From Candidatus Heimdallarchaeum aukensis (GTDB lineage Archaea > Asgardarchaeota > Heimdallarchaeia > Heimdallarchaeales > Heimdallarchaeaceae): a stretch of DNA of 64,000 bases. Under the pieces are notes generated by a model. That model was not told the origin of the DNA. It did no database searches and saw only the letters and a program-made list of their open reading frames with translations. Shown one piece after another: positions 26,203 through 52,506 of the stretch. The DNA is taken from NCBI GenBank assembly GCA_021513695.1, contig CP084166.1:32001-96000 (forward strand). Direction: 5' to 3'. Every line of letters begins with the position of its first letter. The stretch's first letter is position 1. The translations under genes and the position numbers were made by a program.

Positions 26203-28710
26203 GTGAAAAAAGTTAATTTAGCGAGACAATGGGTGTTGTCAACAATTTTGACTGTTTCTTTTTCACTCTTTATAATAATGGGTTCAAACACTTTAATTTT
26301 AGAGACACGAATTCAAGGATTGACTCAATCTACTTTTGATAAATATCTCGAATCAAAAATTGAAAGCATGGAGCTCTCCAGTTATCAATTTGCATCTTCA
26401 ATAGATTCACTCTTTGAAGGATATATAGTCTCTCTGAATAACACAGCAAAGTATATTTCTCATCAACTTTACTCTAATGAATCACTGGAAATTTATGAAA
26501 AAAACTATTTAGAATTCACAAATAGTGATGAAACCCTATATCTAAATGGTTTAATAAATGCTAGTGTAAGGCGAGAAGAAAAAATTGGTTACTTAGACTT
26601 CTATAATGATGGAACAAACATTATGGATACTCCAGGATTAGTTATCACTGGAAAAATTAAAAATACAATCTCAATACAAGGAATTATAACAGTTCAAACA
26701 AATGCTTCATTATCTGGAGAACTTGCATTAAATTCTTCTTTGCTTCTTTTTTACTCTGAACCTAATTCTAGTTTGTTCTCTGTTGATATTTCAGATTTAT
26801 TTCAAAGTTATTTCAACAACTCATTTAATGTTACTCTTCTTGGTTCATGGAATGAAGATCCAAATTTGATTCCTCAAGTAATAAAGTCTAGGATTAATTT
26901 TACAGAGTTTAGTTTCTTTAAAGAGTATTATGTTTTAAATTCGCCTAAAATGTCAAATATTACCTTAACAAAAGAATTAGAAATCTCAAAAATTGATGGC
27001 TGTATTGAGGGTTATATCTTAGGGCAGTATAAAGGTATATTAAAAGGAAACATTAATGGAGTTTTAAGTGGTTCAATTGATTTGCGTCCTAAATATATTT
27101 ATCAACATTTTCCTTCTCTACGTCAATCTTTTTTGCAATGGGTTTATTATGCAACACCAAATTATTTTATCATTTATCCATATTATCCTAACTATTTTGA
27201 CCCTGAGCATTTATTAGCTTTAACTATCGAATTTAATTGGTTAAAAAGACCTTGGTATAATGAAATATTGGCTCAAGAAATAAATGAAACAAGAAAGGGC
27301 GTAAAAGCACATTTTTCTAGTTTAGGAGTAGACTATGTGTTAAAAAATTTATTTATTAGTCTAGGGCAAGCAATTTATAATTCCACAGATTACCAAGGCC
27401 TTTTAGTACAAGATTTCAATTTAGATTTTTTGAAAAATGCTTTAGAACTTAGGATCACTCAAGAAGATTTTAATTGGCTTGTAGACAATTCAGGAAATAT
27501 TCTTTATTCTCCTGAATACTTTGAAAAAGAGAATGTATTCATTTTAACTCCCTATCCTACTTCTAATGTTTTTAAATTAAACAACAGTGCTCTCTCTAAT
27601 TCATTTCTAGCTGCTAAAGCAGGTGAATTGTCTCATATTGAGTTAACCTTCAACGAAACATCATACTTAGTTTTTTATAGAGAACTTGCTTCGCCAGATT
27701 GGTGGATGATTCACTTTTCACCCGTGGATTTAATTCTTGAAGAAATACAACCATTAATTAATGAAATGGAGAAAAACTTCAGAAATGTAGAAGTTATGCT
27801 CTTAGTTACATTGTTTGTTATACTATCTATTGTTGGGAGTATTGAAATATTCTTGACTAGAAATTATACAAAAAACTTAACTAAACTTAGAAACGCTATA
27901 GATCGGGTTTCTAGTGGAGATTATAGCGTTTCTTTTGACTTTAATAGAGAAAAATTAAATGAAATTACTGAAGTATTCTTCCTATTTGAAGAAATGGCTA
28001 TCAAATTAAACGATTCAATTGAAAAAGAAAAACAATCGACAATTTTAGCAAACCTTGCTCTTGACTTGTTTATTCATGATATAGGCAATTATTTGCATGC
28101 TCTAAATGGTTATTTGGAATTAGTTTCATTAAGGTCGGAAACTGAAGAAATGAAATCTCTTCTAGAGAAAATACGAAGAGTATTAGAAAAGACTGAACGG
28201 TTAAGGGATAGAATAATTGTTCTCCGTTCTTTAAGCAGTAAAAAAATGACTTATGCAAAAGTGAATCTAAAACAACAAATAGTAAAAGCACTAGAAAACG
28301 TAAAAATCTTTTATCCACAATTCATGATAGATTATGTTCAGCTTTTTGAAGATGATTTTTCAATTTATGTTTGTAATTACTTCACTGATTTACTAGAAAA
28401 CATATTTGAATTCTTTGTAAAACAATCTCAAACTAAAAAAGTTTCACTTCAGATAGATGCAATAGAAAAAGAAAAACATCTAGAATTAATAATTGAAGGA
28501 AAAGGAAAAGGTTTAAGCTATAGCAGAAAAATTCAGATACAAGAAGAGTTAGCTACAGGTAGAAGACTTTCTGATTTTAATTTAATTACAGCATATATGA
28601 TTGTTAAAAGATCTGGCGGAAGTATGGTTATTGAGGATATGGTTGAAGGAAAACCAGAAGAAGGTTCTAAGCTAATTCTTAAATTACCTAAAAATACACA
28701 GAAAATATGA
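26203..28710 (+). CDS. Sensor histidine kinase with large (~500 aa) extracytoplasmic sensor domain
   Basis: 835-aa ORF. GTG start 7 nt after GGAGG. TM1 (VLSTILTVSFSLFIIMG), then a long N-glycosylation-sequon-rich extracellular region, then TM2 (MLLVTLFVILSIVGSIEIFL). HAMP-like linker. H-box LFIHDIGNYLHALNGYLELV. C-terminal HATPase_c-like region (IIEGKGKGLSY, VKRSGGSMVIED). Confidence 0.8.
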   Translation: MKKVNLARQWVLSTILTVSFSLFIIMGSNTLILETRIQGLTQSTFDKYLESKIESMELSSYQFASSIDSLFEGYIVSLNNTAKYISHQLYSNESLEIYEKNYLEFTNSDETLYLNGLINASVRREEKIGYLDFYNDGTNIMDTPGLVITGKIKNTISIQGIITVQTNASLSGELALNSSLLLFYSEPNSSLFSVDISDLFQSYFNNSFNVTLLGSWNEDPNLIPQVIKSRINFTEFSFFKEYYVLNSPKMSNITLTKELEISKIDGCIEGYILGQYKGILKGNINGVLSGSIDLRPKYIYQHFPSLRQSFLQWVYYATPNYFIIYPYYPNYFDPEHLLALTIEFNWLKRPWYNEILAQEINETRKGVKAHFSSLGVDYVLKNLFISLGQAIYNSTDYQGLLVQDFNLDFLKNALELRITQEDFNWLVDNSGNILYSPEYFEKENVFILTPYPTSNVFKLNNSALSNSFLAAKAGELSHIELTFNETSYLVFYRELASPDWWMIHFSPVDLILEEIQPLINEMEKNFRNVEVMLLVTLFVILSIVGSIEIFLTRNYTKNLTKLRNAIDRVSSGDYSVSFDFNREKLNEITEVFFLFEEMAIKLNDSIEKEKQSTILANLALDLFIHDIGNYLHALNGYLELVSLRSETEEMKSLLEKIRRVLEKTERLRDRIIVLRSLSSKKMTYAKVNLKQQIVKALENVKIFYPQFMIDYVQLFEDDFSIYVCNYFTDLLENIFEFFVKQSQTKKVSLQIDAIEKEKHLELIIEGKGKGLSYSRKIQIQEELATGRRLSDFNLITAYMIVKRSGGSMVIEDMVEGKPEEGSKLILKLPKNTQKI

Positions 28711-29495
28711 AAAAACTAGCGATAATAGGCCTTGGTTTTATTGGAGAAACTGTAATTGATGCAATAATTAGTCAGAAAATTGATTTTGAAATACAAGCTA
28801 TTTATGATATAAATGAAAAAGTGCTAAAAAAAGTACAAAGACACTTAAAAAATGTAAGAATAATGAAAAACTTAACTGATTTTTCTGATTGTGATGTAGT
28901 AATAGAATGCGCGGTTCAATCAGTTGTTGAAGAAATATTTGATAAAGTATTGGAAGATAATATCTATTTTATACCAATGAGTATTGGTGCATTTGTAACA
29001 AATGAATCTCTTTACTTGAAGTATCAAAATTTGGATGAAGAGAAGAAAAAACTTATTCTTCTTCCTTCTGGGGCAATAGGGGGTTTTGATAGCATTGATG
29101 CAATCGCTTTGGAAGGATTAAACAGTGTTTTGTTAGAAACAAGAAAACCCTATCATGTTTTCGAAAAAAGTGCATATGCAATAAAAAATGGTATTAAATT
29201 AGATAAAAATAAAGAGACAATAATTTTTGAAGGAAACGCAAAAGAAGCAGCGAAAGAATTTCCACGTAGTATAAATGTCGCAGCTAGACTCTCGTTAGCT
29301 ACACTCGGGAGAGAAAAAACAAGAGTAAGAATTCTTTCAGATCCTTTAATTAATCAAAACATTCATCGAGTTTTTATTGAATCAAATGTTGGTTTATATG
29401 AATTCACATTTAAAAATAAACCTTCTCCTTCCAATCCAAAAACTTCTTGGTTAGCTGCTCTTTCTCTTATATCATTTTTGAAAAAGATTCAGTAA
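28707..29495 (+). CDS. nadX: L-aspartate dehydrogenase (NadX-like)
   Basis: 262-aa ORF. N-terminal Rossmann fold MKKLAIIGLGFIGETV. C-terminal DUF108-like half with the conserved PSGAIGGFD and NVAARLSLA motifs. ATGA overlap with the upstream kinase gene. Sits in the NAD biosynthesis neighbourhood. Confidence 0.75.
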   Translation: MKKLAIIGLGFIGETVIDAIISQKIDFEIQAIYDINEKVLKKVQRHLKNVRIMKNLTDFSDCDVVIECAVQSVVEEIFDKVLEDNIYFIPMSIGAFVTNESLYLKYQNLDEEKKKLILLPSGAIGGFDSIDAIALEGLNSVLLETRKPYHVFEKSAYAIKNGIKLDKNKETIIFEGNAKEAAKEFPRSINVAARLSLATLGREKTRVRILSDPLINQNIHRVFIESNVGLYEFTFKNKPSPSNPKTSWLAALSLISFLKKIQ

Positions 29496-29502
29496 TTTTA
29501 AA

Positions 29503-29805
29503 TTAATTTGTTTTTTCTTCTTTTTCTTTTTTGAGCTGTTCGATTTCTTGCTTTATATTTCTCCGTAATGGAATTATTACACTAAATATTAGTAGAATCG
29601 TAATTAGTAAAGTAAGGTAAGACCATAGAGATTGAAAATATCCAATTCCGTTATTCAAATCGATAATGTTGAAAATTGCTGAAACAACCCAAATTGTTAG
29701 AATACTTATTGAAAGAAGGATTTTTCTAATTAATGTTATTTTCATGTATTTTTTACTGTTTCTTATATCAGCTATATTTTCTTTCTCGTTTGTGTTTTCT
29801 GCCAT
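29503..29805 (-). CDS. Small two-TM membrane protein (hypothetical)
   Basis: 100-aa ORF with two hydrophobic helices (ILLSISILTIWVVSAIF, LTLLITILLIFSVIIPL) and a K/E-rich C-terminus. Confidence 0.4.
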   Translation of the reverse strand: MAENTNEKENIADIRNSKKYMKITLIRKILLSISILTIWVVSAIFNIIDLNNGIGYFQSLWSYLTLLITILLIFSVIIPLRRNIKQEIEQLKKEKEEKTN

Positions 29806-29975
29806 CTTAAATTCTCTGATTTGTTTGTTAATATATATTTTTCCTTTTTGTTACTTCTAAAATATAATTTCTAAAAAAAAATATATAATGAATTTAAGCT
29901 TCTAAATTAACTATTGATTGTCAATAACAAAACGTTAAAAATAAAATTGAAAAGAATATTTTTAGGTAGATAAAA

Positions 29976-31031
29976 ATGGTAAACGAAGAATTTTTAAAAA
30001 AACTTGTTATAACACCAAGGGCTACAGGATACGAGTTTGGAGCTCAACAAATAATTAAGGAATATCTTGAGAAAGATGTAGACGAGATTTATGCAGACAG
30101 AGTGGGAAATCTTTATGCTGTTATTAATCCAGAAAGTCCATTTAAAGTGATGTTAGCAGGGCATATAGATCAAATTGGTTTCCAAATTAGCTATATCGAT
30201 GATAATGGTTTCTTATGGTTTAAACCTCTAGGTGGTTTCGATACTTCTACTTTACCTGGAAAGAGAGTAAAAGTTATAGGGAAAGGAGGGACATTTTTAG
30301 GAGTAATAGGCAAGAAAGCCATTCACTTGATGAAACCAGATGAAAGGAAGAAAGCACCTGAAATGGAAAAACTCTTCATTGATATTGGATGTAAGGATAA
30401 AGAAGAAGCTTCAACTAAAGTTCAAGTGGGAGACTTTGCTGTTTTTGATTATGGCTATGATAGATTAGGAGAACACAACTATGCAGTTTCTGCTGGTTTT
30501 GATGACTCTATAGGCTCATTTATTGTAGCAGAGATAATGAAAGAACTTGCCAAAGACAAAAACTTTTACGCTGGCGTGTATGGTGTTTCTACTGTTCAAG
30601 AAGAGATAGGATTACGCGGAGCTATTGTTGCAGCAAAGAAAATCAGTCCTGATGTGGGAATAGCTTTTGATGTAGGCTTTGCTTCTGATGCACCAGAGAT
30701 TGATAAAAAAGATGTAGGAGAAGTTAAACTTGGTGAAGGACCTATTATCTCTATTGGACCAAACCTAAACCCTGTACTAGTTAAAAGAATAATAGAAATA
30801 GCCGAGAAAAATGAAATTCCCATTCAACCTCATGCTGCTAATAGAGGAACAGGGACAGATGCAAATGCTATACAGCTATCAGGAGCAGCTACAGCTTTAG
30901 TTGGTATTCCAAATAGGTATATGCATACAGCTTCTGAAGTAATCTCTCTTGATGATGTAAAAAATATTGTAAAATTAGTAGTAGAAGTAATTAAATCAAT
31001 AACTGAAGAAGATACATTTATTCCATTCTAA
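29976..31031 (+). CDS. M42-family (TET/FrvX-like) aminopeptidase
   Basis: 351-aa ORF. Metal-ligand contexts GHIDQIGF, GFDDSIG, EEIGLRGA and a C-terminal His (MHTASE), the M42/TET aminopeptidase pattern. Confidence 0.8.
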   Translation: MVNEEFLKKLVITPRATGYEFGAQQIIKEYLEKDVDEIYADRVGNLYAVINPESPFKVMLAGHIDQIGFQISYIDDNGFLWFKPLGGFDTSTLPGKRVKVIGKGGTFLGVIGKKAIHLMKPDERKKAPEMEKLFIDIGCKDKEEASTKVQVGDFAVFDYGYDRLGEHNYAVSAGFDDSIGSFIVAEIMKELAKDKNFYAGVYGVSTVQEEIGLRGAIVAAKKISPDVGIAFDVGFASDAPEIDKKDVGEVKLGEGPIISIGPNLNPVLVKRIIEIAEKNEIPIQPHAANRGTGTDANAIQLSGAATALVGIPNRYMHTASEVISLDDVKNIVKLVVEVIKSITEEDTFIPF

Positions 31032-31043
31032 TTTCCTTTTTTT

Positions 31044-31880
31044 TTATTCAATTAGCATTGAAAGATCAAAGTTTTTTACCGAATGAGTTAAGGAACCAGA
31101 AGAAATATGGTTAACATTCTCTAATTCAAAATCTTCAATGTTGTCAATTTTTATGTTACCACTTAATTCAATAAGTATATTTTGGTTTATTTCTCTAATC
31201 TTTTTAACAACATGTTTTGCTTGTATTGGTTTAAAGTTATCAAGCATAATTATATCTGCTCCAGCTTTTGCTGCTTCAATAGCTTCCTCTTCATTTTTTA
31301 CTTCTACTTCTATTTTTTTACTAAAACTTACAGTTTCTTTTGCTTTTGCTATAGCTTCTGTTATTGAACTAAAAAGAGATAAGTGATTCTCTTTTAACAA
31401 AACCATGTCAGAAAGATTAAATCGATGAGTATCTCCACCACCTATTGTAACAGCATATTTATCATATTTTGCTAAACCAGGAACAGTCTTTCTAGTGGCG
31501 CATATTTTAAGGTTTGGGTTAATTTTTCTCGTTTTTTCTATCATTTGAGCAGTAGTTGTTGCTATTCCAGACATTCTACCAAGTATATTCAAAGCGATTC
31601 TTTCTCCTTGAAGAAGACTCTTGATGTTACCTTTGATTTCTGCAATAACTTGTTTTTTACTAACTTTTTGCCCCTCTTGCACATTTGCGTTCCATTCTGC
31701 TCCAAGAAGAGTAAAGATTTTTTCTGCAACTGTTAAACCTGCAATAATACCTTCCTGTTTAGCGAAAATTTTTGCTTTTACTTTTTTATCTGGAAGAAGA
31801 TTAGTTGTAATATCCCAATAAGGGATATCCTCTTTTAACCATTCTTTGATATCTTCTTCAATAAGAATCTCTGGTATCAT
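31044..31880 (-). CDS. nadC: Nicotinate-nucleotide pyrophosphorylase (quinolinate phosphoribosyltransferase)
   Basis: 278-aa ORF. N-terminal EDIPYWDITT, type II PRTase core (TRKTVPGLAKYDKYAVTIGGGDTHRFNLSDMVLLKENH) and C-terminal IMLDNF...ELSGNI. Adjacent to nadA. Confidence 0.85.
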   Translation of the reverse strand: MIPEILIEEDIKEWLKEDIPYWDITTNLLPDKKVKAKIFAKQEGIIAGLTVAEKIFTLLGAEWNANVQEGQKVSKKQVIAEIKGNIKSLLQGERIALNILGRMSGIATTTAQMIEKTRKINPNLKICATRKTVPGLAKYDKYAVTIGGGDTHRFNLSDMVLLKENHLSLFSSITEAIAKAKETVSFSKKIEVEVKNEEEAIEAAKAGADIIMLDNFKPIQAKHVVKKIREINQNILIELSGNIKIDNIEDFELENVNHISSGSLTHSVKNFDLSMLIE

Positions 31881-31899
31881 TGTGAAAACCAGATTTTTT

Positions 31900-32931
31900 C
31901 TAGTATTTTAGCATATTGTTTACTGCGTTGAAAGCTCGTTTTCTGATTCCTTCTTCAATTTCTATTATATTTTCTTCCTTTGGATTTTCTAAACACTCTA
32001 AAATATTAATAAGATTACTTTGTTTCATCATAGGGCAAATCATATTACTGTCTACAAACTTCAGATGGGGATATTCTACTTTCATTCGATCAATGAAACC
32101 TTGTTCAGTAACAAACAACACTTCTTTCGATGTCTTACTTGATTTAGAAAATCTGTGCATATCTCCTGTTCCCCCTACTAAATCAGAAATCTCAACAACT
32201 TCAGGTTTACACTCAAAATGAGAAAAAACTAAAGTGTCTTCATTTTTCTTTAGTTGCTCTAGTTTTTCTTTTGTAATTCTATCATGTGTTCTGCAATGTC
32301 CTCTGTAAGTGATAATCTTCTTTCCTGTAACTTTAGCTAAGTTTACTCCCATATTGTAATCAGGGACGAAAATAATTGTATCACTATCTAATTTCTCAAT
32401 AATTTTTCTTGCATTTGCAGAGGTACAACAGACATCAGCTTCAGCTTTTACATCAGCAGTTGTATTGACATAGCAAACAACAGGAGCTCCAGGATATTTC
32501 TTTTTTAATTTTCTAACATCCTCCCCAGTTATTGAATCTGCTAAAGTGCAACCTATTCCTCTTTTTGGAACTAAAACAGTTTTTTCAGGATTAAGAATTT
32601 TGGCTGTCTCAGCCATGAATTCTACACCACAAAAGAGAATAATGTCTTCTTTAACTTCAGTTGCTTTCTTGGATAATCCTAAACTATCTCCTACATTATC
32701 TGCAATACCAAAAATAATATCTGGAGTCTGGTAAGAATGAGCTAGAATATGTACTCCTTTTTTCTTCTTGAGTTTGTTAATTCTTAAAGTTAAAGGAGCG
32801 ATATCTAAACAGTCATTTAACGTCCATCCTAAATGACCTAGCTTTGAATATAGTCTCTGTACTTCATTTTCTATTTCATCTTGTGTAAAGCCAAATGTAA
32901 TCTGTTCAATCTGATTTTCAATAACTACCAT
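31900..32931 (-). CDS. nadA: Quinolinate synthase A
   Basis: 343-aa ORF with three-repeat NadA architecture and conserved Cys residues (e.g. GIGCTLAD, HCRTHD), ILAHSYQTPD and CYVNTTADVKAEADVCCTSANA. Confidence 0.8.
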   Translation of the reverse strand: MVVIENQIEQITFGFTQDEIENEVQRLYSKLGHLGWTLNDCLDIAPLTLRINKLKKKKGVHILAHSYQTPDIIFGIADNVGDSLGLSKKATEVKEDIILFCGVEFMAETAKILNPEKTVLVPKRGIGCTLADSITGEDVRKLKKKYPGAPVVCYVNTTADVKAEADVCCTSANARKIIEKLDSDTIIFVPDYNMGVNLAKVTGKKIITYRGHCRTHDRITKEKLEQLKKNEDTLVFSHFECKPEVVEISDLVGGTGDMHRFSKSSKTSKEVLFVTEQGFIDRMKVEYPHLKFVDSNMICPMMKQSNLINILECLENPKEENIIEIEEGIRKRAFNAVNNMLKY

Positions 32932-33345
32932 TTTTTAGACCAAGTAACGCTTCAATGAAGGTATATAAAGGAAATATGCTTTAGGAAAATATTACAAGAT
33001 TTTTTTGAAAAGAACTAATGTAACATAGAAAATAAATGCATTTTTAGAAAAATACAAGCAAAAATTGCCTAAATATAATAAAAAGGTGTTTTTTATTTTA
33101 AGGCATATCTAAAGAACTCTTGAGAATACTACTAATCGTTAAATTATTTAAAAATTATATACTCCCATTAGTATAAATTATAATCTTTTATTATAGGGTT
33201 ACAATTCTATAGATTTGAAGCATTGTTATTTTTTGTTATTTCTAGCTATCATTCTATTAATAATTAAACACAAGATAAATAAATAAAATTACAAACAATA
33301 AAATGATTAACTAACATAATTGTAAGTAGATTATTTGGTGTGAAA

Positions 33346-34392
33346 ATGAACATATTAATGGTTATAGCTGAAGAAGAAGTTTTTAGAAACTTTGCTGATA
33401 CAATTAAAGAACAATTAACAAGTAATTCAGATAATATCTCCTTTTCAGAAATTACAGAAAGTGAACTCGACACAACTCTACAAAACTCTACCTATACAAG
33501 AAATATTAAAACAACAGATCTTGTCATTTCTGTTGGAGATACAGGGACATTCTTAAAATCTATCTTTTTGTCAAATGGAGAAAAACCCGTTATTGCAGCT
33601 TCTTCAGAAAAGATTAGTTTCTTTACTGAAATGACACCCAACAATCTTGAGGAAGCTGTAGCTTCAATATTATCTAAAAGTTACACAATAGATGAATATA
33701 ATAGAGTAGTTCTACAAGATGCAGTGTCAAATGAATACTTGCCCGCATTAAACGAAATAGCTATTTTTCCAAATCGGTCAGCACAGCTAATGAGCTATAC
33801 ACTAACATTAGATAATAATTATATATATAGAGGAAGAGCTGATGGTATTATTGTTTCAACTCCCTTAGGTTCTACAGGCTATGCACTCTCTGCCAATGGT
33901 CCAATTGCTTATGGAAATCCAGACATTACTCTAATTGTACCTGTAAATCCTTTGAATAAAGATCACCATCCTGTTGTTGCCCCTGCGGAGTCTATCATAT
34001 CAATAACTAATTTAAAAGCGAAAACCCAAATAGAAGTTATAATAGATGGTCAAATTAGGAAGAAAATAGATGGACAAACAATTAAAATATTGAAAGCTAG
34101 AAAGAAAGCAAAAATAGTAAGAATTAGCAAAAATATAAATATTGTATCTAGATTAAGAAATAGGTTAGTAGAACTTGACCTACAATCATTAGAAGGTGTT
34201 CCTCCTTCAGCAAAATACATTTTTAAGTTACTACATACAGAGGGAGAAATGACACAAAGTGAAATAATACAAAGTACAGGTTTACCTTCAAGAACAGTTA
34301 GAAATGCACTCAAAATACTTAGTGAAAAAGGGTTAATTGGAAAAAGGAGATATCTACATGATGCAAGACAATCTATTTACTTTTTAATATGA
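33346..34392 (+). CDS. nadK: NAD kinase (NadK/PpnK-like) fused to a C-terminal winged-helix DNA-binding domain
   Basis: NadK signatures DLVISVGDTGTFL (GGDGT-like), DGIIVSTPLGSTGYALSANGPI (GSTAYS.SAGGP) and the beta-sandwich C-lobe. The extra ~70 aa (LLHTEGEMTQSEIIQSTGLPSRTVRNALKILSEKGLIGKRR) are MarR/TrmB-type wHTH-like. ATG 33346 is preceded by GGTG. Confidence 0.7.
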   Translation: MNILMVIAEEEVFRNFADTIKEQLTSNSDNISFSEITESELDTTLQNSTYTRNIKTTDLVISVGDTGTFLKSIFLSNGEKPVIAASSEKISFFTEMTPNNLEEAVASILSKSYTIDEYNRVVLQDAVSNEYLPALNEIAIFPNRSAQLMSYTLTLDNNYIYRGRADGIIVSTPLGSTGYALSANGPIAYGNPDITLIVPVNPLNKDHHPVVAPAESIISITNLKAKTQIEVIIDGQIRKKIDGQTIKILKARKKAKIVRISKNINIVSRLRNRLVELDLQSLEGVPPSAKYIFKLLHTEGEMTQSEIIQSTGLPSRTVRNALKILSEKGLIGKRRYLHDARQSIYFLI

Positions 34393-34709: not shown

Positions 34710-37700
34710 ATGAAAAAAAGTAAAATTAAAGTTATTTCTATTATCGCTATTTTTCTTCTCATCTTGAACGTCTCGACGATATACGTTCAAGGTCAGATGG
34801 TAGGTAATGAAACTAAATTAATGATGACTGGAAATCCTACAGAAGTTTATGAAGATCAGATAGCGATTCTGTATGATCCATTTAATGATATGACAAGAGA
34901 ACTAGCAAATTCGATTTATGAGACTGTTCATATGTTTTATTCTAACGTGAAAATGGTCAAAGTTTTCAATTTAGATTCATTTAACAGAGCTTTTTATGAT
35001 GATGATTGGATTAAAATCTATGTTTTCGACTCTGACTTAAAAGGAATAAAATTTGCTGGTTGGACAATGTCATGGAGAAAACTAACTGGATACTACAATG
35101 TTTTCAAAGATACAAGGCACATTGGAGTTTATGGAAACTCATACAAGATGGGTCCATATCTTAAGACTGAAAACTGTTATATAGAAAATACAGAGATTCT
35201 AGATTATCGTATTGCTTACATTCATGTATTGTGGTCATTATATGATATTTTTACAGAAAAAGAAGATGAAATTCTTCAACAAATAGGAGAAAATTTCAAA
35301 TTAATAGCAATTAAATATTTTGGAGATTCATTTGAAGAAATAATGTCTGCCGAGTTTGATCCACAAGGATTAGGTGTTGTTGACCCAAAAAAGGCAGAAG
35401 AAAGATTACAAGATTCAATGGACCAATATCCAAAGAGATTAAATAAAGTTAATCCATATACGGGTGAGTTAGTTGATCCAACAGCAGAGATTGAAGGATT
35501 TAATCCTGTAATGGATATTAAACCCAAAGCAGCGATAGATGAAGATGACATTGTTTTAGGTGAGTTTCCGTTCTTATCTTCGATTCCTGGAGCTGCAGGT
35601 GACGTTATTAAAATAATTTTAGAGTTTATAGGTGTCGAGATACCAGAAGGTTTATTGACTGTAGGTAAAGAATATGGGGGGCAGATCGTCGCAATAATTA
35701 AAGAGATACCTAAAATTATTGGTTTCTTTAAGGATCCAAGTGCAAGTAGTGCTATTGAACTATTTTTTGATGTAGCAAAAGAAATGTTTCCCAGTATAGA
35801 AGAATATAAGCCCTACTTCGATATAGTAGTGAAAGCCCTATTTTCGATAAAAGATATTGCTTCAGGGGATCTTACTCCTTTAATTGATATATCAATGGAA
35901 CTTCTACGATTTATAATTCCTGATAGTGTAGGAGATTTTGTTGACGATGTTTTTGATGCTTTAAACATATCAAGTGCCCTTTCTGATATTATTAGTGGAG
36001 TTACTAATGTTGGTGATTATCTTAAGAGTTTTCTCAATAGGCAACTAATTACAAATTTAATGAAGAAATTTATTGAACAGACTTTAGATCTAGGGGGAGA
36101 ATCCCAAAAATGGATAGATACCATTTCAGAGATTATTATGATTGCTTATGAAATTGCCAGCACTCGAGATATGGATCACATAATAGCGGATGTCTTTCCA
36201 CGATTAGGAAAATTAGTTTACAAGAACATCTTAGATATGACCTATGATGAAAATGTAGAAAATACCTTCAAAGGAATTGCTGTTGCAATTAAGATGGGTT
36301 TTGGAGCTGCTGGAATCATTGATGTTAATCTTAAGGATTCATTTATGGATTTAATAGGCTTCTTCTTCCCTGACCTCGTTGAGACAGTTAATGATGTTAA
36401 ATTCTTTGTTTCAAGTATTAGGTCTCAAATTGATTCCTTTATGGATCTTGTTAAAGATGTTTCAGAAGGTAAAAATCTAGATGTAAACAACGTTCATGAC
36501 CAAATTATATCTTTAATTACTGAGCTTAGTTCATTATCAGGTCATTCTCTCGATGCAAATAAGATAAATGTACTCTCTCAAGCTGTTTTGATGGCTTTAG
36601 CTCTAATAAATGGTGATTTTGAAGCTTTAAGTGATACTAGCTGCCTAACAAGTCTAGTTGATGGATTTCTAGAACATTTTATTGGACTAGAAGAAGGTCC
36701 TAGAGAAATTGTACAAAAGGCAATAGAAGCTGGAGCAGCTATTTTACCTTTCATTACTGGGAAAAAGAGTTTGAAAAAATATATTATGGGAAGACTTGAA
36801 GATTTTGCTGACAAATTCAAGAATCCTGGAGAAATAATTGAAAAGGTTCTTTATTATTTCCTAAGCAAGTACAACGCAAGTACTCAACTTTACCAACTTA
36901 TTGGAAAAATTGTAGGAATAGTCATTGACATCTTTTCTGGAGGATTTGACTTTTCTGTTCAAAATGTTATTCAGACAATAATCTCAATGGCAGTTGTAGT
37001 TTTGAACATGTTAGATGTCAATATTCCGTTAGAAGCAATGTACAAGAGTTTTCAACTTCTATGGGAAGAGGGGCCAGAATTTTCCAATGTTGTAAAAGTA
37101 GTTCAAGATATTATGGGATTACTTGGAGGAAGCATTGACCCAACAATTAAAACTACTGTAGAAACAGTTCTTACTTTTCTAGGAGGAGCAAAGAATATCT
37201 TCAAAGATGGAATAAAATGGATAATGAACCAACTTGTAGGTTGGGCAGCAGGGCAGATTGCTAATTTATTAAATATGCTTACTGATAAATTAAATGAACT
37301 GTTCCAATCTCTTGGTGATTTGGTAAGTTATGATTCTGAATTCCCAATTGGTTTCGGAAGTTTTACTGCCTTCCAGATGCGAGTATTCTTCTCTTTAAGT
37401 CCTGGATTCGAAATTAACCCTGAACCAATTCAAGAGCTCATTATGAGTATGATTTTTGATGGGTCAAAGGTTTTTGATCTCGATAATATCGGAGAATTGT
37501 TTAAGCTTATCTTAAAATCAATTTCAATTATTCCTATTTTCAAAGCTGGACTTGAAATCAAAGCAGGAACGTCTGGAAAGAACGACTTAATGAAGATGCT
37601 CCTTGATTCTCTTGGTCTGGAACTTTCATTCTCTGGCTCTGCAGGACTAACACTGCAATTAATGAAGATTTCTAATGGTAAAATAAGTACTAGTGATTTC

Positions 37701-40700
37701 TTCAAAGTAATAGAATTCTTCTTTAAATTCCAGATATCAATAGCTAAAACATTCCCATTAGCAGAATTTCTAGGTCCAGGAGGAGCAGTTTTAGCTAAAG
37801 TTGCAGAATTCTTAGGTTTAGGTGGAATTTACCTAAAGATAGAGTTCTTTATAGCAATAGAAATTGTTAAACGATGTGAGACACCTACTCAGAAGGCTGC
37901 AGATATTTTAACAATTGTAATAGGAATAGGTGTTTCTGTAATTATTGATATCGACTTGGTAATTGTTGGAATAAAAATAACTATAGGTTTTGTAGTGACG
38001 CTGACGTTTATCCAGGACTTCTTGGCGGACGCACCGCTGCAAGTGATACTCGAGATAGAGTTCACTGTAGCGGTGAAACTGACGTTCTTGTTCGTCGACT
38101 GGACAGGAACAGCGTCATGGGGTCCAGATCCAATTTATCTGGCAGGAGGACCGGATGATGAAAGCACAAAAGACGAAATGAGCGGCTTGGACGCAGATGG
38201 GGATGGGTTACCTGATTCATATGAGTTAGGAGTTCCAGGAATGAAAGTAGACAGCGATGACAGTGATGGAGACGGTTTATCAGACCAATTCGAAGTGAAA
38301 ACGAGTAAAACAGACCCTATCACTGCAGATTCTGACGATGATGGTCTAGATGATTACATGGAATATGAAGTCTTAAAGACCAATCCTCTACAAGTAGATA
38401 GTGACTATGATGGTTTAACTGACTATGAAGAAGTTGTTATCTATGGAACTGATCCTAATGCACAAGATACAGATGGTGATCAATTAGATGACTATTACGA
38501 AGTAAATACTGCATGGAATATCACTGGAATAACTCCAAGTGTAAGATTTGTTACAATTGGGGGAGTAGAGTATAAAGATCATACTGATCCTCTTAATCCT
38601 GATACTGATGGTGATGGACTTCTAGATGGACAAGAAGGAGAATTTGGGGCTTATTATGGACCAGAATTGTATAACACTTCAGACCCAAGTTGGGATCCCT
38701 ATCCAATATTCTACAATCAAGGATATACTCATCCATTAGATAATGATACCGATGATGATTCTTATAAACAATTAGCAAATGGAACTATAGCTCCAGATCG
38801 TCAGTTCTTAATCTATATGTCTGATAAGGTAGAAATAGATGGACAATGGGTTATTTTCATTGAAGATGATGAATTAATGGGTAGAGTAGTTAGAACTAAC
38901 CCAATTAACCCTGATACTGATGGTGATTCAGCAGTAATGGATAAATCTTGGAGAGGTGATGGGGCTCCTCTTGACTTTTTCCTGAAGTCTGATGGTTACG
39001 AACTCTGGTTAGATCCGCCGACAGACCCGAATGACGCGGATATGGACGATGATGGATTAATTGACGGTTTAGAGGGTTGGGGTAATAAGATCAGTAATCA
39101 TACTGATCCTCGTAATCCTGATACTGATGGTGATGGACTTGGAGACCTGCAAGATATTCTACTCGGTTCGGATCCTTTGAACCCTGATAGTGATATGGAT
39201 GGAATTCTAGATGGTGAGGAGTTCTTCAAGTATGGAACTAACCCCGCTTATGAAGATACAGATCATGATGGGCTTTTGGATGGTGAGGAAGTTTATCTAT
39301 TCCACACAAACCCTCTGGCGGTAGATAGCGATGGAGATGGGATAGATGATGGAATGGAGGTATTAGTTTATGGTTCAGACCCGATGGATGAAGATATGGA
39401 TAACGACGGTCTAACAGACTGGGAAGAGATTTTCTACTACTTTACCAATCCTAGAGATTACGACTCAGATGATGATGGTCTAAGTGATGCTATGGAGGTT
39501 TTAGATGAATATGCTATATACACTGACCCATTGAATTGGGACTCTGATAATGATTCAATCACATATCCTAATGAAAACGGAAATTATACTTTCCCACTTT
39601 CTGATGGAGATGAAGTACTAATTTACGGAACTGACCCATTGACAAGCGATACTGATGGAGATGGATTGCACGATTCGTTTGAACTATATCTTGGTTCAGG
39701 TTTAATTTACAACTTTACTCCTGTACCTTTGGATCCGTTATCTAACGATACTGATGGAGATGGAATATATGATGCAAATGAATACCACATTGCAAATGTC
39801 TCTAACATCATTTATCCTTATGTTAGTTTTATCATCACCCAACCTTACAATACTTCTCCAGTAGATCCAGACTCTGATGATGACGGGATTATCGATGGAG
39901 ACGAAGTCTATGTATATGGAACTATGCCAGATATGAAAGATACAGATGGAGATGGACTAGACGATTGGAGTGAACTTAATATTATGTATACTAACCCTCT
40001 GAGTTCGGATACGGACAATGACTATCTGACAGATTGGGAAGAATGGTATGCGGGTTTTGAACATCCAGGATATCTACTTGATCCTAACGACCCTGATTAT
40101 GATAATGATATGCTGCCAGATGGGCCAGAGTTACTACTTTACGGTTCTAATCCTAATAATGCCTATGAGATTGATCCAAGTTCAGGAAAAGTCGATGGTC
40201 TGTTGATGGATTGGGACCATGATGGTCTAGAAGATGGTTTAGAGTTCTTTGTATACAACACTAGTTATGTAGCAGGAGGAGGAGTCACCCAGCCAGATAG
40301 TGATAGAGATGGTTTGATGGATGGTGCAGAAGTATATGTTCATGGTACAGTCCCCACGAATTGGGATACTGACAATGATACATATAGTGATGGATTAGAA
40401 GTGATGTTAGGACTAGATCCTCTTACATATACAACAGAAGAGGAATTTATAGCAGCTCTATCTGCAAATCAAGATATGCTAGAAGCAGGAGTACTAGTTA
40501 TCTCACCAATAGAAGGTGGAATTTACTCTCCTTCTAACTATACTTTCATCCTCTATAACGTGACAGAACTACTGGGCGTACAATATCAAATGAAGAAGAA
40601 CAAACAAGATTTCGGAGACAACATGAGTATGTACTATGATGATGTTTCAAGGACGTGGATAACTCAAGGAGATTATATTGGACCTGGAGATTATATCGTC

Positions 40701-49113: not shown

Positions 49114-49791
49114 ATGTTGATGGTACCTACTCAGATGAAAAAAATAACCATACTAGGGACAACTGGTAGTGGAAAGACCACCTTTTTAGAAGCTTTATTT
49201 GGTGATTTTGAAAAAAATGATGTTAAAAGAGATTTGAGTAAAGAAAAAAGTTCAAATTGTGATTTTATTCCTTTGAAAAATAATACATTCAAAGAAAGTA
49301 CAACAACAATAAGTTTGAATGTCATTAATTCATTGCTTTATTTGACTACATTTAATCGATTAGGTTTAGAAAAGTTCGAAAATAGAGACAATATTGACTT
49401 TGAAAATGTTGAAGAGATTTATCAAATAGTTTTCAATGATCCTGCAGGACAAGAAAGATTTGATTTCATGCAAGAGATAGCAGTAAGAGGAGCAAACCTA
49501 GTAATTATAATGGCTGATGGCACAAATATCTCGAGTTTAGAAAAAGTAGTTCATTATATTTCGTTGGTAAAAATTGAAGAAAATCTATCTAAAAAGAAAA
49601 TACCGACTATTATTTTCATCAACAAATCTGATTTAAAGGAAAAGGGTGTTTATTTAGGAAAAAATGTAGCTGAGCAGATTATTTATTCAAGCATTCTTGA
49701 TGAGAAATTACTTATTTATGAAACTTCTAACCTTAAGAGAGAAACATATGATGAACCTTTGAGGATTATTTTTAACTATCTTTCATACTAA
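49114..49791 (+). CDS. Ras-superfamily (Rab/Ras-like) small GTPase
   Basis: 225-aa ORF. P-loop GTTGSGKTT. Switch II DPAGQERF (Rab/Ras DTAGQE). NKSD (NKxD). About 70-aa insertion between G1 and G3. Real start may be the internal Met (MKKITILG) at 49135. Confidence 0.75.
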   Translation: MLMVPTQMKKITILGTTGSGKTTFLEALFGDFEKNDVKRDLSKEKSSNCDFIPLKNNTFKESTTTISLNVINSLLYLTTFNRLGLEKFENRDNIDFENVEEIYQIVFNDPAGQERFDFMQEIAVRGANLVIIMADGTNISSLEKVVHYISLVKIEENLSKKKIPTIIFINKSDLKEKGVYLGKNVAEQIIYSSILDEKLLIYETSNLKRETYDEPLRIIFNYLSY

Positions 49792-49843: not shown

Positions 49844-50818
49844 ATGAGCGTAAAAATAACCTCAGAATATATAGAGCTGCTGAATAAAGCAGTTGCAAGA
49901 GAATTACAAGTTTCTGTTCAATATTTTCTACAACACGCTAAAATTGAAAAAATAATGAGAAAAGTTAAAGCTGAAAATATTTTACTTGATTCCACAACTT
50001 ACGACCAGATAGGTCAGATTTTAAAGAAACTAGCAATAGAAGAAATGAAACATGCAGGATCAATCGTTGAGAGAATTTATTATTTGGGAGGCAAGGCAAC
50101 AACTAAAGCTTTTAAACCTAAAATAGGAGAAAATATGCAAGAATTTATGAAATATGGCTTTGAAGCTGAAGAAGAAGCTTTAGAATTATATCGTGAAATA
50201 ATCCGCGAGGCAGGTAAATTAGGAGATTATGATACTAAAGAACTCTTTAGGAAAATCTATAGAGAGGAAGAAGAACATCTTTATACGTTTCAAGAATATT
50301 TAACAATTAATATTAGTGAACCTGGAGAGACAGCACCAAAGTCCGAATGGAGAAAAGTTTTTGACGACGAATACTTTGCTCTATTAAACAAAGCCTTAGC
50401 TTCAGAACTGTCTGCTATTATTCAGTACATAACCCAACATGAAAAAGCGAGTGCAATCAATCTTAGGAAAAAAGAAACGCCTTTAGAAGTAATTACCAAT
50501 ACAAACAAAGCGCAAGTTATTAGTAACATGTTAAAGAAAATCTTTATGCAAGAAATGGAACATTACGAAAAGATTTCTGAAAGAATATACATGTTGGATG
50601 GAGAATGTACATTGGATCCTGATCCTTTGCCAAAAGTTGGTGAGAGCGTAGAAGATTTCTTGAAACTGGGTCATCAAGCTGAAGATGAAGCTATTGTTCT
50701 TTATCGTAAAATCATAGAAGAAGCTACTAAGAAGGGAGATATAACTACTAAGAAGATGTTTGAAGAAATATTGATGGAAGAAGAAGAACATTACTGGATG
50801 TTTGATGACTACTTGTAA
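49844..50818 (+). CDS. Tandem-duplicated ferritin-like (bacterioferritin/rubrerythrin-fold) diiron protein
   Basis: 324-aa ORF with two ~150-aa halves. Each carries ferroxidase-type E...QY/E..H ligand motifs (ELQVSVQYFLQH + EEMKHAGSIVERIYYLGG; ELSAIIQYITQH + QEMEHYEKISERIYMLDG) and the conserved E-x-x-H second pair (EEEHLYTFQEYL; EEEHYWMFDDYL). Confidence 0.7.
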   Translation: MSVKITSEYIELLNKAVARELQVSVQYFLQHAKIEKIMRKVKAENILLDSTTYDQIGQILKKLAIEEMKHAGSIVERIYYLGGKATTKAFKPKIGENMQEFMKYGFEAEEEALELYREIIREAGKLGDYDTKELFRKIYREEEEHLYTFQEYLTINISEPGETAPKSEWRKVFDDEYFALLNKALASELSAIIQYITQHEKASAINLRKKETPLEVITNTNKAQVISNMLKKIFMQEMEHYEKISERIYMLDGECTLDPDPLPKVGESVEDFLKLGHQAEDEAIVLYRKIIEEATKKGDITTKKMFEEILMEEEEHYWMFDDYL

Positions 50819-50888: not shown

Positions 50889-51254
50889 ATGAGTAATATA
50901 AAGAAACTCACTTTTTCTGTAAATCAAAGTAGAAGAGTGATTCGTGCAGCAGAAAACAAGAAAATTGAACCTAAAGAATTGCTTAAAGGTTATGAGCTTA
51001 TGGTAAATACCCTCTTTAAGCATTGGAAAGAAGAATATGCTGAAACTATGGAAATTGACTTTCAAACATTTTTTTATGAAATAATGAAATATGCTGAAGT
51101 TAAATATAGATTAGAAAAGACCAAGTCTGATCTAAAAAAAATAAAAGAAATGTCAGAGTTGTTAAACGAAGCCATTGAAGAATATAAAGAAGATTATACA
51201 ATTTTGAAGGCTATAGAAGATAGTTTGAGAAATATGGGTGTTGAGTGGGTTTAA
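50889..51254 (+). CDS. Hypothetical protein
   Basis: 121-aa K/E-rich ORF with no recognisable domain. Directly abuts the next ORF (stop/start TAAATG). Confidence 0.4.
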   Translation: MSNIKKLTFSVNQSRRVIRAAENKKIEPKELLKGYELMVNTLFKHWKEEYAETMEIDFQTFFYEIMKYAEVKYRLEKTKSDLKKIKEMSELLNEAIEEYKEDYTILKAIEDSLRNMGVEWV

Positions 51255-51704
51255 ATGAAATTGAATATTACCCAATTTAAGATTAAATTCAAGGATAAAA
51301 TAGAAATTGAAAATGAAGAGAAATTTGCAGATAATATAATCTATTATTATCCGTTTTTTCAATCTTTAGATAAAAATGAGTTAGAGAAGTCTCTTCAATC
51401 AATAAGAGAAGAAAAAAAAGTCTTGGAGAAAAAATTCAAAAAAATAAAAGAAGAGTTCTCAGATATACTGGGAGAGATAGCAAAAATACGTTTCACAGCT
51501 AATGAATTATATAATCAAAATAGGGTTATAGCTCTGACTACAGGGTTATTAAGACATAAGCTGATAGATTTACATAATAATAATGTTGAACTTCCTTTTG
51601 ATTATGAGGAAACACTTAAGTTTGTAGAACATTTTATTTATAGATATTTAACTAAAAAAGAAGATAAAAGACTTGTTGCCCAGCTACCTTTTAAAGAGAT
51701 TTGA
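51255..51704 (+). CDS. Hypothetical protein
   Basis: 149-aa ORF with no recognisable domain. Upstream of the serine recombinase gene. Confidence 0.4.
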   Translation: MKLNITQFKIKFKDKIEIENEEKFADNIIYYYPFFQSLDKNELEKSLQSIREEKKVLEKKFKKIKEEFSDILGEIAKIRFTANELYNQNRVIALTTGLLRHKLIDLHNNNVELPFDYEETLKFVEHFIYRYLTKKEDKRLVAQLPFKEI

Positions 51705-51783
51705 GAAAATTCACACTTTTTCTATTTGGAATAGTAATACTAAGTTTTATATTAAAAATAGAGAACCTTATTGCAAGGTCAAA

Positions 51784-52506
51784 ATGATTCGTTGTGTTAT
51801 TTATGCTCGTACATCTACAGCTGATCAAACTAGTGGGTTAGAAACACAGATTGAAGATGTAACGGCTAAGATATATCAAGCTGGAGATAGAGCAATAGTA
51901 AGAATAATTAAAGATCAAGATATTGCAGGCGATAGTGACCCTGAATATAGACCCGGATTTAAAGAAATCCTAGAAATGGCAAAGAATAATCAATTTGATG
52001 AGTTATGGTCTCAATCAAGAGACAGATTGTCAAGAGACGTTGATATTTTGGGTTATATTCGCATTCTTCTAAAAAAGAATAATGTTTCTATAGTTTGTTT
52101 AGATGATGAAGAAAACAAGGTTATTTCTAGAGTTAAAGACCTATTTGGTGAAATGGAACTTCAAAAATATAGAGAAAAAAGATACAAAGGAATGATGAGA
52201 AGACTAAAGGAACAAAAAGTAATGTCAAGACCTCCTTTTGGTTATAAAGTGAATGAGGAAGGAAAATTAGTTGTAGATGAGGAAAAAGCAGCAATAATTA
52301 GAAGGCTCTTTTCTGAATTTGACAACCCTTTGGCTTCTTTGAAAAGTTTAAGTTTGAAATATAATTTATCTGTCTCTACACTGCGAAATATTCGTTCAAA
52401 CCCAATTTATCGAACTGGTGAAGTACGTTGGGCAGGAAAAATTGCTTATTATGTTGATCCTATTGTCCCTGAAAATAAAGATCAAAAACTTAAGTTAGAC
52501 GACTAA
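51784..52506 (+). CDS. Serine recombinase (resolvase catalytic domain + partial 'recombinase' domain; truncated large-serine-recombinase-like)
   Basis: ATG 51784 (MIRCVIYARTSTADQ = Y.R.ST..Q catalytic-serine motif). RDRLSRD (SRLSR-like). Downstream recombinase-domain pattern RPPFGYKVNEEGKLVVDEEKAAIIRRLF ... STLRNIRSNPIYRTGEV. The protein ends about 60 aa later, with no zinc-ribbon or coiled-coil region. TATA-like TTTTATATTA about 35 nt upstream. Confidence 0.7.
   Translation: MIRCVIYARTSTADQTSGLETQIEDVTAKIYQAGDRAIVRIIKDQDIAGDSDPEYRPGFKEILEMAKNNQFDELWSQSRDRLSRDVDILGYIRILLKKNNVSIVCLDDEENKVISRVKDLFGEMELQKYREKRYKGMMRRLKEQKVMSRPPFGYKVNEEGKLVVDEEKAAIIRRLFSEFDNPLASLKSLSLKYNLSVSTLRNIRSNPIYRTGEVRWAGKIAYYVDPIVPENKDQKLKLDD

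Follow-up and report, generated by a model that had tools for sequence, protein, structure and literature searches.

The window analysed here is a stretch of 64,000 nucleotides from Candidatus Heimdallarchaeum aukensis, in which two large genes follow each other on the + strand. The first encodes protein A, an open reading frame of 2,067 amino acids (aa) that runs from an ATG at 34710 to 40913; the choice of this ATG rests on the orthologues, whose alignments begin there. The protein opens with a Sec-type signal peptide (34710..34796, aa 1-29, MKKSKIKVISIIAIFLLILNVSTIYVQGQ), which has a basic n-region followed by an uncharged h-region of 19 residues with a Kyte-Doolittle 19-residue mean (KD19) of 2.55, and which is kept in orthologues. 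The predicted features that follow, all on the same strand, are a flavodoxin-like three-layer alpha/beta sandwich (34851..35429, aa ~48-240), a linker (35430..35591, aa 241-294) with the conserved motif P287..G294, FPFLSSIPGAAGD, an alpha-helical repeat region of about 30 helices (35592..37307, aa 295-866) and a beta module (37323..38144, aa 872-1145). In the beta module, about 10 long amphipathic strands are predicted to follow one another in an up-and-down meander, and strands beta6-beta9 make up a hydrophobic block (37809..38099, aa 1034-1130). Asp-rich TSP3-type calcium-binding repeats, presumed to form a stalk, occupy 38157..40409 (aa ~1150-1900). A C-terminal transmembrane anchor is placed at 40773..40847 (aa 2022-2046), within an uncharged Gly/Ala/Val-rich stretch (aa ~2020-2047, KD19 1.84) that is followed by a short basic tail, and most full-length relatives have an equivalent hydrophobic segment at their C-terminus.

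The product of the second gene (40913..48922, +), protein B, has 2,669 aa and is a type I membrane protein of the FG-GAP/beta-propeller kind. It matches Pfam FG-GAP_3 (E 2.3e-16) and, weakly and each time under the Pfam cut-off, PQQ_2 and the models Beta-prop_ACSF4/Beta-prop_BBS7. The two genes are translationally coupled, the ATG of B sharing one base with the TAA of A (TAATG), with a GGAGGTG a few bases upstream. Directly downstream of A, a B homologue (a beta-propeller of 2,700-2,900 aa) is present in each of the six loci open to such a check (L002-L005, L008 and L009), P0006 and P0100 carry A and B as a fusion, and the pair is conserved down to about 25% identity. Gene order and fusion suggest that A and B form one surface complex.

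Judged by sequence, residues 1-1145 of protein A (34710-38144), hereafter the head, are members of an undescribed family, so far known only from Asgard archaea. An exhaustive profile HMM search, from which the family emerged, retrieved 87 cluster representatives at E <= 1e-3, 40 of them at <= 1e-30; a word-indexed homologue search was much poorer, with three matches for the head and two fragments for a profile of the beta module. Family members with a named source are all Asgard (Heimdallarchaeaceae, Hodarchaeales, Kariarchaeaceae, Promethearchaeota and other Asgard MAGs) and mostly Heimdallarchaeia, and the named members are annotated as hypothetical protein. Full-length members are mostly 2,000-2,300 aa long and have a common layout; four genomes have full-length orthologues of 2,044-2,086 aa, the one of Ca. 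Heimdallarchaeum endolithica being 93% identical. The N-terminal ~1,140 aa have no match in Pfam, NCBIfam or PDB sequences. At E <= 1, a Pfam search with protein A and 21 family members gave only scattered single-member noise for the head, and NCBIfam matched neither the head nor protein B. Against PDB sequences, the head as a single sequence gave one chance match and no homologue, the family profile matched only de novo designed helical repeat proteins, and a profile of the beta module matched nothing. Literature searches on surface proteins of Asgard archaea (giant, integrin-like, TSP3 or FG-GAP) turned up no account of the family. The first-pass annotation had called the region an orphan with no recognisable family. 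The databases are indeed blank even with family profiles, and the word orphan is right in the sense of lacking a described family; with this many relatives, the head is not an ORFan.

Pfam places the known part of protein A in its C-terminal half. The TSP3 match (PF18884) scores 81.6 bits where the cut-off is 25 (E 3.4e-23), and the repeats all lie after aa ~1150, the top-scoring one at aa 1184-1204; they assign protein A in its entirety to PF18884, though not its N-terminal head. Asp accounts for 19% of the residues of the TSP3 region, the most conserved part among the orthologues (50-70% invariant columns). The repeats also give NCBIfam matches to CglD and MtsD, below the cut-offs (160 bits vs 400). 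CglD and MtsD are myxobacterial adhesion/cohesion proteins, and the TSP3 half of protein A shares with them and with MtsC its Asp-rich calcium-binding repeats. The likeness to such prokaryotic TSP3 surface/adhesion proteins is limited to the repeats, and the head has no counterpart in them. As for them, a surface location is predicted for protein A, and its signal peptide, TSP3 repeats and C-terminal anchor together argue for a surface role.

The fold of the head was predicted with AlphaFold2. The model from a 47-sequence alignment (pLDDT 78.6, pTM 0.60) has three modules, and prediction and family statistics together indicate a flavodoxin-like alpha/beta domain, a helical array of ~570 residues and a beta-meander of ~270 residues. 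An earlier run with 4 sequences (pLDDT 36.8) was too poor for fold search; its secondary-structure layout is identical. The region had been annotated at first pass as a helical domain of ~1,100 residues. That description has to be replaced, as the model confines the helices to aa 295-866, after ~240 aa of alpha/beta domain at the start and before ~270 all-beta aa at the end. The domain end set at 38000 (aa 1097) would cut strand beta8; the end of the module lies at about aa 1145 (nt 38144).

The N-terminal domain is predicted as an alpha/beta sandwich at pLDDT >90 and, of all parts, is conserved most widely across the family, with W175, P218, G222 and an HIxxxGN motif among its conserved positions. 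To our knowledge, these correspond to no recognised signature of flavodoxin-like families. Fold search matches the domain to receiver and periplasmic-binding folds. It has no sequence match to such flavodoxin-like domains (the CheY receiver, the half-domain of periplasmic-binding/LacI proteins), and unlike them it lacks a phospho-acceptor context and is predicted to be extracellular. In the linker (pLDDT 50-65), conservation among the 47 members is at least 90% for both P287 and G294. The helical region is modelled with pLDDT mostly 80-90 from aa ~350 onwards and closes with a helix of 39 residues (828-866), and the family-averaged hydropathy has helical periodicity there. It is the least conserved part of the protein (8-18% invariant columns among five orthologues) and contains weak internal repetition, the highest hhalign probability among its thirds being 88.8%, for aa 290-480 against 680-870. 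A Foldseek search of the model against viral structures gave nothing meaningful.

The beta module (pLDDT 54-88 in the 47-sequence model) carries short amphipathic helices in three loops, and hhalign found no internal repeat between its halves (probability 1.6%). All its strands are amphipathic, and one face of the 10-strand sheet is almost purely aliphatic/aromatic: I/L/V/F make up 71% of this greasy face, with 19% F, 3% W and 1% Y, and these are not clustered at the strand ends. Each strand has 7-8 alternate hydrophobic residues spanning 13-15 residues, or ~33-38 A. The hydrophobic block, which the first-pass annotation correctly placed directly before the TSP3 repeats, reaches a maximum KD19 of 2.49, spans aa 1061-1130 in a narrower delimitation, and is conserved, with KD19 >= 1.6 in the aligned block of 33 of 34 family members. 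Of 2000 shuffles, 602 reach the 19-residue hydropathy maximum and 43 the 40-residue one, and the hydrophobicity by itself is not far above chance for such an I/L/F-rich composition. The non-random features of the block are its period-2 amphipathicity and the conservation of this pattern. The period-2 moment is 1.60 vs 0.72 +/- 0.19 in shuffles (4.6 sd), the helical moment is at chance, and the residue-by-residue alternation of hydropathy is also present in the family average. Both AlphaFold2 runs model the block as strands of 16-19 residues. The four strands alternate strictly between an I/L/V/F face and a polar face, which argues for a sheet and against a transmembrane helix, and the block is predicted to consist of long two-faced beta-strands rather than membrane-spanning helices.

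The first-pass annotation had suggested that the block is a membrane segment, re-entrant or multi-pass, midway along a surface protein, a reading taken here in the usual alpha-helical sense. The KD19 of the block, up to 2.49, is above the usual 1.6, as it is at or above that value in nearly all relatives, and in some family members the block has charge-free runs of 25-43 residues. In protein A the longest such run is 14 aa, D1080, D1082 and K1089 interrupt the block, and no stretch of at least 19 consecutive uncharged apolar residues without beta periodicity is found. Together with the period-2 pattern, the strands of both models, the extracellular-type domains that flank the block on both sides and the amphipathic strand pattern that begins already at aa 872, this makes a helical membrane segment highly improbable. 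Fold searches point to outer-membrane beta-barrels, and the module could in principle be a genuine membrane barrel with its greasy face outward, a pore or contact anchor in the cell's own membrane or in that of a partner or prey. This we hold to be unlikely. Outer-membrane barrels (BtuB, CymA, PgaA, BamA/TamA, autotransporter translocators) have no sequence similarity to the module, and those among the best matches have mostly 12-24 strands vs ~10. The hydrophobic span of 13-15 residues per strand exceeds the ~9-11 of a transmembrane barrel belt, and no Tyr/Trp girdle is seen. Unlike outer-membrane barrels, the module has extracellular domains on both sides, within a protein anchored at its C-terminus, in a host with one membrane. 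The belts of outer-membrane barrels measure ~24 A, Asgard archaea in culture have only one membrane, and no barrel-insertion machinery is known from Asgard archaea. From the ~33-38 A span, the scarcity of Tyr on the face and the single-membrane host, we infer that burial of the greasy face is more likely than its exposure to lipid.

A second set of structural matches concerns large lipid transfer proteins. The top three matches of the whole model in a Foldseek search of the PDB are microsomal triglyceride transfer protein (MTP; 6i7s, two chains, E 6.6e-4 with probability 0.84 over 797 columns, and E 1.6e-3 for the second chain) and lipovitellin (1lsh, E 7.4e-4), and honeybee vitellogenin (9enr, E 0.038) is next in the list. 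The fold searches point weakly to lipid-carrier proteins. In vitellogenin/lipovitellin, MTP and apoB, large amphipathic beta-sheets come after a helical solenoid, which is also the order of modules in the modelled head, and one face of its sheet covers ~48 x 55 A as estimated from strand number and length. Helical array and sheet might enclose a large hydrophobic cavity for the extracellular transport of lipids or other hydrophobic molecules. In this reading, to which we give a small chance, the head would act in the manner of large lipid transfer proteins, through analogy or very distant homology. Neither protein A nor the 21 family members have a Pfam match to Vitellogenin_N/lipoprotein N-terminal domain at E <= 1, and in the place of the N-terminal beta-barrel that precedes the helices of large lipid transfer proteins, protein A has its confidently predicted alpha/beta sandwich. 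The looser suggestions of the first-pass annotation, that the region binds lipid or forms a pore, are compatible with the greasy sheet face and with the fold matches. A paper on Asgard lipid transfer deals with START domains only. An integrin-like heterodimeric adhesion receptor, with the FG-GAP propeller of B in the position of integrin alpha, is also conceivable from the gene pair: A and B both have the type I topology and a short tail, the two genes are translationally coupled, adjacent at every checked locus and sometimes fused, and protein A begins with a well-predicted Rossmann-like domain. In that case this domain would be the I-like domain of a beta subunit and the remaining head a scaffold. 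The DxSxS metal-ion site of the integrin I-like/VWA fold was not found in it, and we regard this receptor model as quite unlikely.

For the function of the head as a whole, which we can only infer, the preferred reading is a soluble binding module: on balance, residues 30-1145 probably form the membrane-distal head of a family of giant type I surface proteins. The TSP3 repeats (~750 residues) and the C-terminal anchor would be the stalk that keeps the head off the cell. The greasy face would be buried against the amphipathic helices 828-866, 904-935, 959-968 and 1017-1034, perhaps leaving a hydrophobic cavity. With this face packed on helices, the head would be soluble, suited to adhesion or hydrophobic-ligand capture, and not membrane-embedded. 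A conserved VKR|AAS loop is a possible cleavage site. In a cultured Asgard archaeon, cryo-ET revealed an irregular coat of globular proteins tethered to the membrane (bioRxiv 10.1101/2025.07.22.663070).

A bolder and rather improbable version would make the head a new extracellular module that engages hydrophobic ligands or membranes, with a greasy face of ~35-40 A held on a calcium-stiffened stalk beside the propeller of B, with which Heimdall-group Asgard archaea would extract or exchange the lipids of neighbouring cells or insert into them, as a contact or lipid-traffic device. Among known archaea, the Asgard lineage and above all its Heimdall group stand closest to eukaryotes. Models of eukaryote origin give a central place to the surfaces of these cells and to their contacts with partners, and their surface proteins are nearly all uncharacterised. 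What was found is a conserved two-gene surface module, so far Asgard-only, with a head of ~1,100 residues and an unusually large, one-sided hydrophobic beta-sheet. If the sheet binds lipid or membrane, the module would be a concrete candidate for a role in contact or lipid exchange between cells. If the sheet is only a buried core, the head would still be a new domain family, and it would warn against trusting hydropathy plots, which call too many membrane segments in the I/L/F-rich proteomes of low-GC genomes. The peptides quoted in the first-pass annotation are present in protein A. The composition given there, rich in G/A/I/L/D/F, has to be corrected: aa 290-1000 have I 12%, L 11%, G 8%, S 8%, V 7%, F 7%, D 7% and K 7%, and Ala reaches only 5%.

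The gene encoding protein A comprises 2,067 codons (ATG at 34710 to stop at 40913, + strand) in a window with a GC content of about 30%. The protein opens with a Sec-type signal peptide (aa 1-29) and a stretch of about 1,115 residues without a database match. Asp-rich TSP3 repeats of the calcium-binding type (Pfam PF18884, E 3.4e-23) take up approximately the next 750 residues, and a small membrane-proximal region lies between them and the C-terminal transmembrane anchor (aa 2022-2046), which is followed by a short basic tail. Uncharged runs of at least 19 residues occur in the signal peptide and likewise in the anchor. The closest genomic match is Candidatus Heimdallarchaeum endolithica, with 93% protein identity and shared neighbouring genes.

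The head of protein A, which precedes the TSP3 repeats, had been described in the first-pass annotation as an orphan domain of no recognisable family. The second part of this description was borne out: the first 1,140 residues of protein A and 20 relatives match no Pfam family even at E <= 1, NCBIfam gave no match for the head, and searches of PDB sequences with phmmer and two family profiles returned de novo designed helical repeat proteins only, or nothing. The orphan status was not. A word-indexed search with the head found three close relatives only; an exhaustive HMM search with the alignment of these relatives as query, run against 1.84 billion cluster representatives, identified 87 proteins at E <= 1e-3, 40 of them at E <= 1e-30. 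Most full-length members measure 2,000-2,300 aa and share one arrangement of parts, running from the signal peptide to the C-terminal anchor. All source-named members are annotated 'hypothetical protein' and come from Asgard MAGs (Heimdallarchaeaceae, Hodarchaeales, Kariarchaeaceae, 'Heimdallarchaeota', 'Asgardarchaeia', Promethearchaeota and one labelled Thorarchaeota); this Asgard-only range holds for the named subset, because many members are metagenome records without names. Among five full-length orthologues, invariant columns make up 8-18% of the helical middle, 43-56% of aa 950-1100, which include the hydrophobic block at the end of the head, and 50-70% of the TSP3 region. The head defines an undescribed domain family, Asgard-restricted among named members, within a conserved two-gene surface module, and we rate protein A itself among the giant archaeal surface proteins, a known kind.

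AlphaFold2 with four sequences gave a pLDDT of 36.8, and with a 47-sequence family alignment a mean pLDDT of 78.6 (pTM 0.60) and three modules. An alpha/beta sandwich (residues ~48-240, pLDDT 90-97) is the part of the family most widely detectable by the exhaustive HMM search, and contains the near-invariant W175, P218 and G222 of the 47-sequence alignment. It also carries a conserved motif, HIxxxGN ... ExxDA (aa 137-165, nt ~35118-35204), whose H137, G142, N143, E162 and D165 do not vary among close orthologues and make up the consensus across the wider family, and which could mark a putative binding site. A linker of low confidence, in which P287 and G294 are conserved, leads into a module of about 30 helices (residues 295-866, pLDDT mostly 80-90 from aa ~350), which shows weak signs of internal repetition and ends in a 39-residue helix (828-866). 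The beta module (residues 872-1145, pLDDT 54-88) is predicted to meander up and down through about 10 strands, 8-19 residues long and mostly 14-19, with short amphipathic helices in three of its loops. The domain end proposed earlier, 38000, cuts a beta-strand, and the module extends to about aa 1145 (nt 38144). Over aa 290-1000 the prevailing residues are I, L, G, S, V, F and D; the Ala enrichment reported earlier is not borne out, Ala being only 5%.

The hydrophobic block and the peptides quoted in the first-pass annotation are present in protein A. The block is conserved: in the aligned region, Kyte-Doolittle 19-residue means reach 1.6 or more in 33 of 34 relatives (median 2.0). The peak is unremarkable because the sequence is so rich in I, L and F: same-residue shuffles matched the 19-residue maximum in 602/2000 cases and the 40-residue maximum in 43/2000. 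The periodicity is far from chance, with a period-2 moment of 1.60 against 0.72 +/- 0.19 in shuffles, reflecting strict residue alternation, and a helical moment at chance level. Family-averaged hydropathy likewise has period 2 throughout the beta module and about 3.6 across the helical region. Both AlphaFold2 runs place strands in the block, namely beta6 (1040-1055), beta7 (1064-1082), beta8 (1086-1103) and beta9 (1111-1126). The block is therefore modelled as beta-sheet, not transmembrane helix. The re-entrant or multi-pass helical segment suggested at first is not supported, given the alternation, these strands and the charged D1080, D1082 and K1089 inside the block, whose longest uncharged run is 14 residues; we consider a helical membrane segment very improbable. 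The beta6-beta7 loop (aa 1053-1063, nt ~37866-37898; columns ~200-212 of the family alignment A5) has the sequence VKRCETPTQKA in the window protein, against VKRAASAxGPE in most of the family; its conserved, exposed dibasic site could, as an idea only, be a candidate for proteolytic processing.

When every strand was split by residue parity across the family, one face proved hydrophobic (I 22%, L 21%, F 19%, V 9%; charged 5%) and the other polar (G/A/S/T 44%; charged 29%). The greasy face would be buried, either in a core or in a cavity under the amphipathic helices 828-866, 904-935, 959-968 and 1017-1034, and on a rough weighting we hold this direction, which is inferred, to be somewhat better than an even bet. 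A membrane barrel with a lipid-exposed greasy face would agree with the local Foldseek matches of the beta module to FepA and autotransporter barrels (probability 0.97-0.99), and the small residues of the polar face would also suit a barrel lumen. Several features instead favour a buried face: the hydrophobic alternation covers 13-15 residues of each strand, or about 33-38 A, and exceeds the ~24 A belts of outer-membrane barrels; Tyr makes up 1% of the hydrophobic face and aromatics are not clustered at strand ends; Asgard archaea, with their single membrane, are not known to have a barrel-assembly system; and module and anchor lie at opposite ends of a presumed 750-residue stalk. We regard the barrel as quite improbable.

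The best whole-model Foldseek matches were microsomal triglyceride transfer protein and lipovitellin (E ~7e-4), followed by honeybee vitellogenin (E 0.038). Like the head as modelled, these lipid carriers have a helical solenoid followed by large amphipathic sheets, which in the carriers line a lipid cavity. They start with a beta-barrel domain, whereas the N-terminal domain of protein A is alpha/beta, and neither Pfam searches of the relatives nor the PDB-sequence profile search gave a sequence signal from the head to lipid carriers or barrels; for these two reasons we do not read the fold matches as pointing to common descent with either. A true lipid-carrying cavity seems unlikely; our weights do not treat the readings as exclusive of one another, and this one overlaps with the buried face, since a buried face can include a hydrophobic cavity.

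Directly downstream lies protein B (2,669 aa; 40913-48922, + strand), a type I membrane protein with signal peptide, FG-GAP/other beta-propeller repeats and C-terminal anchor, for which FG-GAP_3 is the sole Pfam match above the family cut-off and NCBIfam gave no match. Its ATG overlaps the TAA of A by one base (TAATG), with GGAGGTG a few bases upstream, and B is translationally coupled to A. A B homologue directly follows A wherever downstream sequence suffices, at four orthologous and two distant loci (~25% identity); homologues lie at L008:7620-16250 and L009:16513-24846. In two independent assemblies (P0006 and P0100) A and B are fused into proteins of 4,348 or 4,360 aa, in which the two ectodomains are separated by the anchor of A, a linker rich in Lys and the N-terminal hydrophobic segment of B, a topologically consistent arrangement.

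Upstream of A is an NAD biosynthesis cluster (28707-34392) encoding aspartate dehydrogenase, quinolinate phosphoribosyltransferase, NadA and an NAD kinase with an unusual fusion to a C-terminal winged-helix (MarR/TrmB-like) domain. Synteny of the cluster with protein A is confined to close relatives (L001, L002 and L003); because gene order differs in L004, L005 and L009, the cluster is probably unrelated to A and B. Immediately downstream of the pair is a Ras/Roc/Arf-like small GTPase (225 aa; 49114-49791, +), a typical Asgard eukaryotic-signature protein; at L008 a SufBD gene, not a small GTPase, follows B.

The signal peptide, the TSP3 region (a presumed stalk) and the C-terminal anchor would place protein A on the cell surface. 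Consistent with this, the repeat region resembles, below the NCBIfam threshold, the myxobacterial adhesion/cohesion proteins CglD and MtsD, and cryo-ET of a cultured Asgard archaeon revealed globular proteins, tethered to the membrane, that make up an irregular coat (bioRxiv 10.1101/2025.07.22.663070). We infer that, together with B, the head most likely binds another surface or a hydrophobic ligand. Much less probably, the sheet could engage lipids or membranes of neighbouring cells, which, if shown, would make the head of much higher interest.

Elsewhere in the window, ORFs of 835 aa (26203-28710, +; conserved in Ca. H. endolithica at L002:1504-4011) and 618 aa (56913-58769, +) have no Pfam match at E <= 1e-4. 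A 324-aa protein (49844-50818, +) has two ferritin-like domains (Pfam Ferritin, two stretches, E 6e-45) and may be an orthologue of the dodecameric Asgard archaeal protein with a double ferritin fold described in a 2026 preprint whose text mentions Heimdallarchaeum endolithica (bioRxiv, 10.64898/2026.08.25.747088). At 50889-52506 (+), two small ORFs (121 and 149 aa, no Pfam match) precede a gene for a serine recombinase (Resolvase N-terminal domain, E 2e-20); together they may form a small mobile element or inversion system. Another large surface protein, of 907 aa (58771-61494, +), carries the N-terminal signal of archaeal type IV pilins (Pilin_N) ahead of CarboxypepD_reg and Big_1 Ig-like domains.
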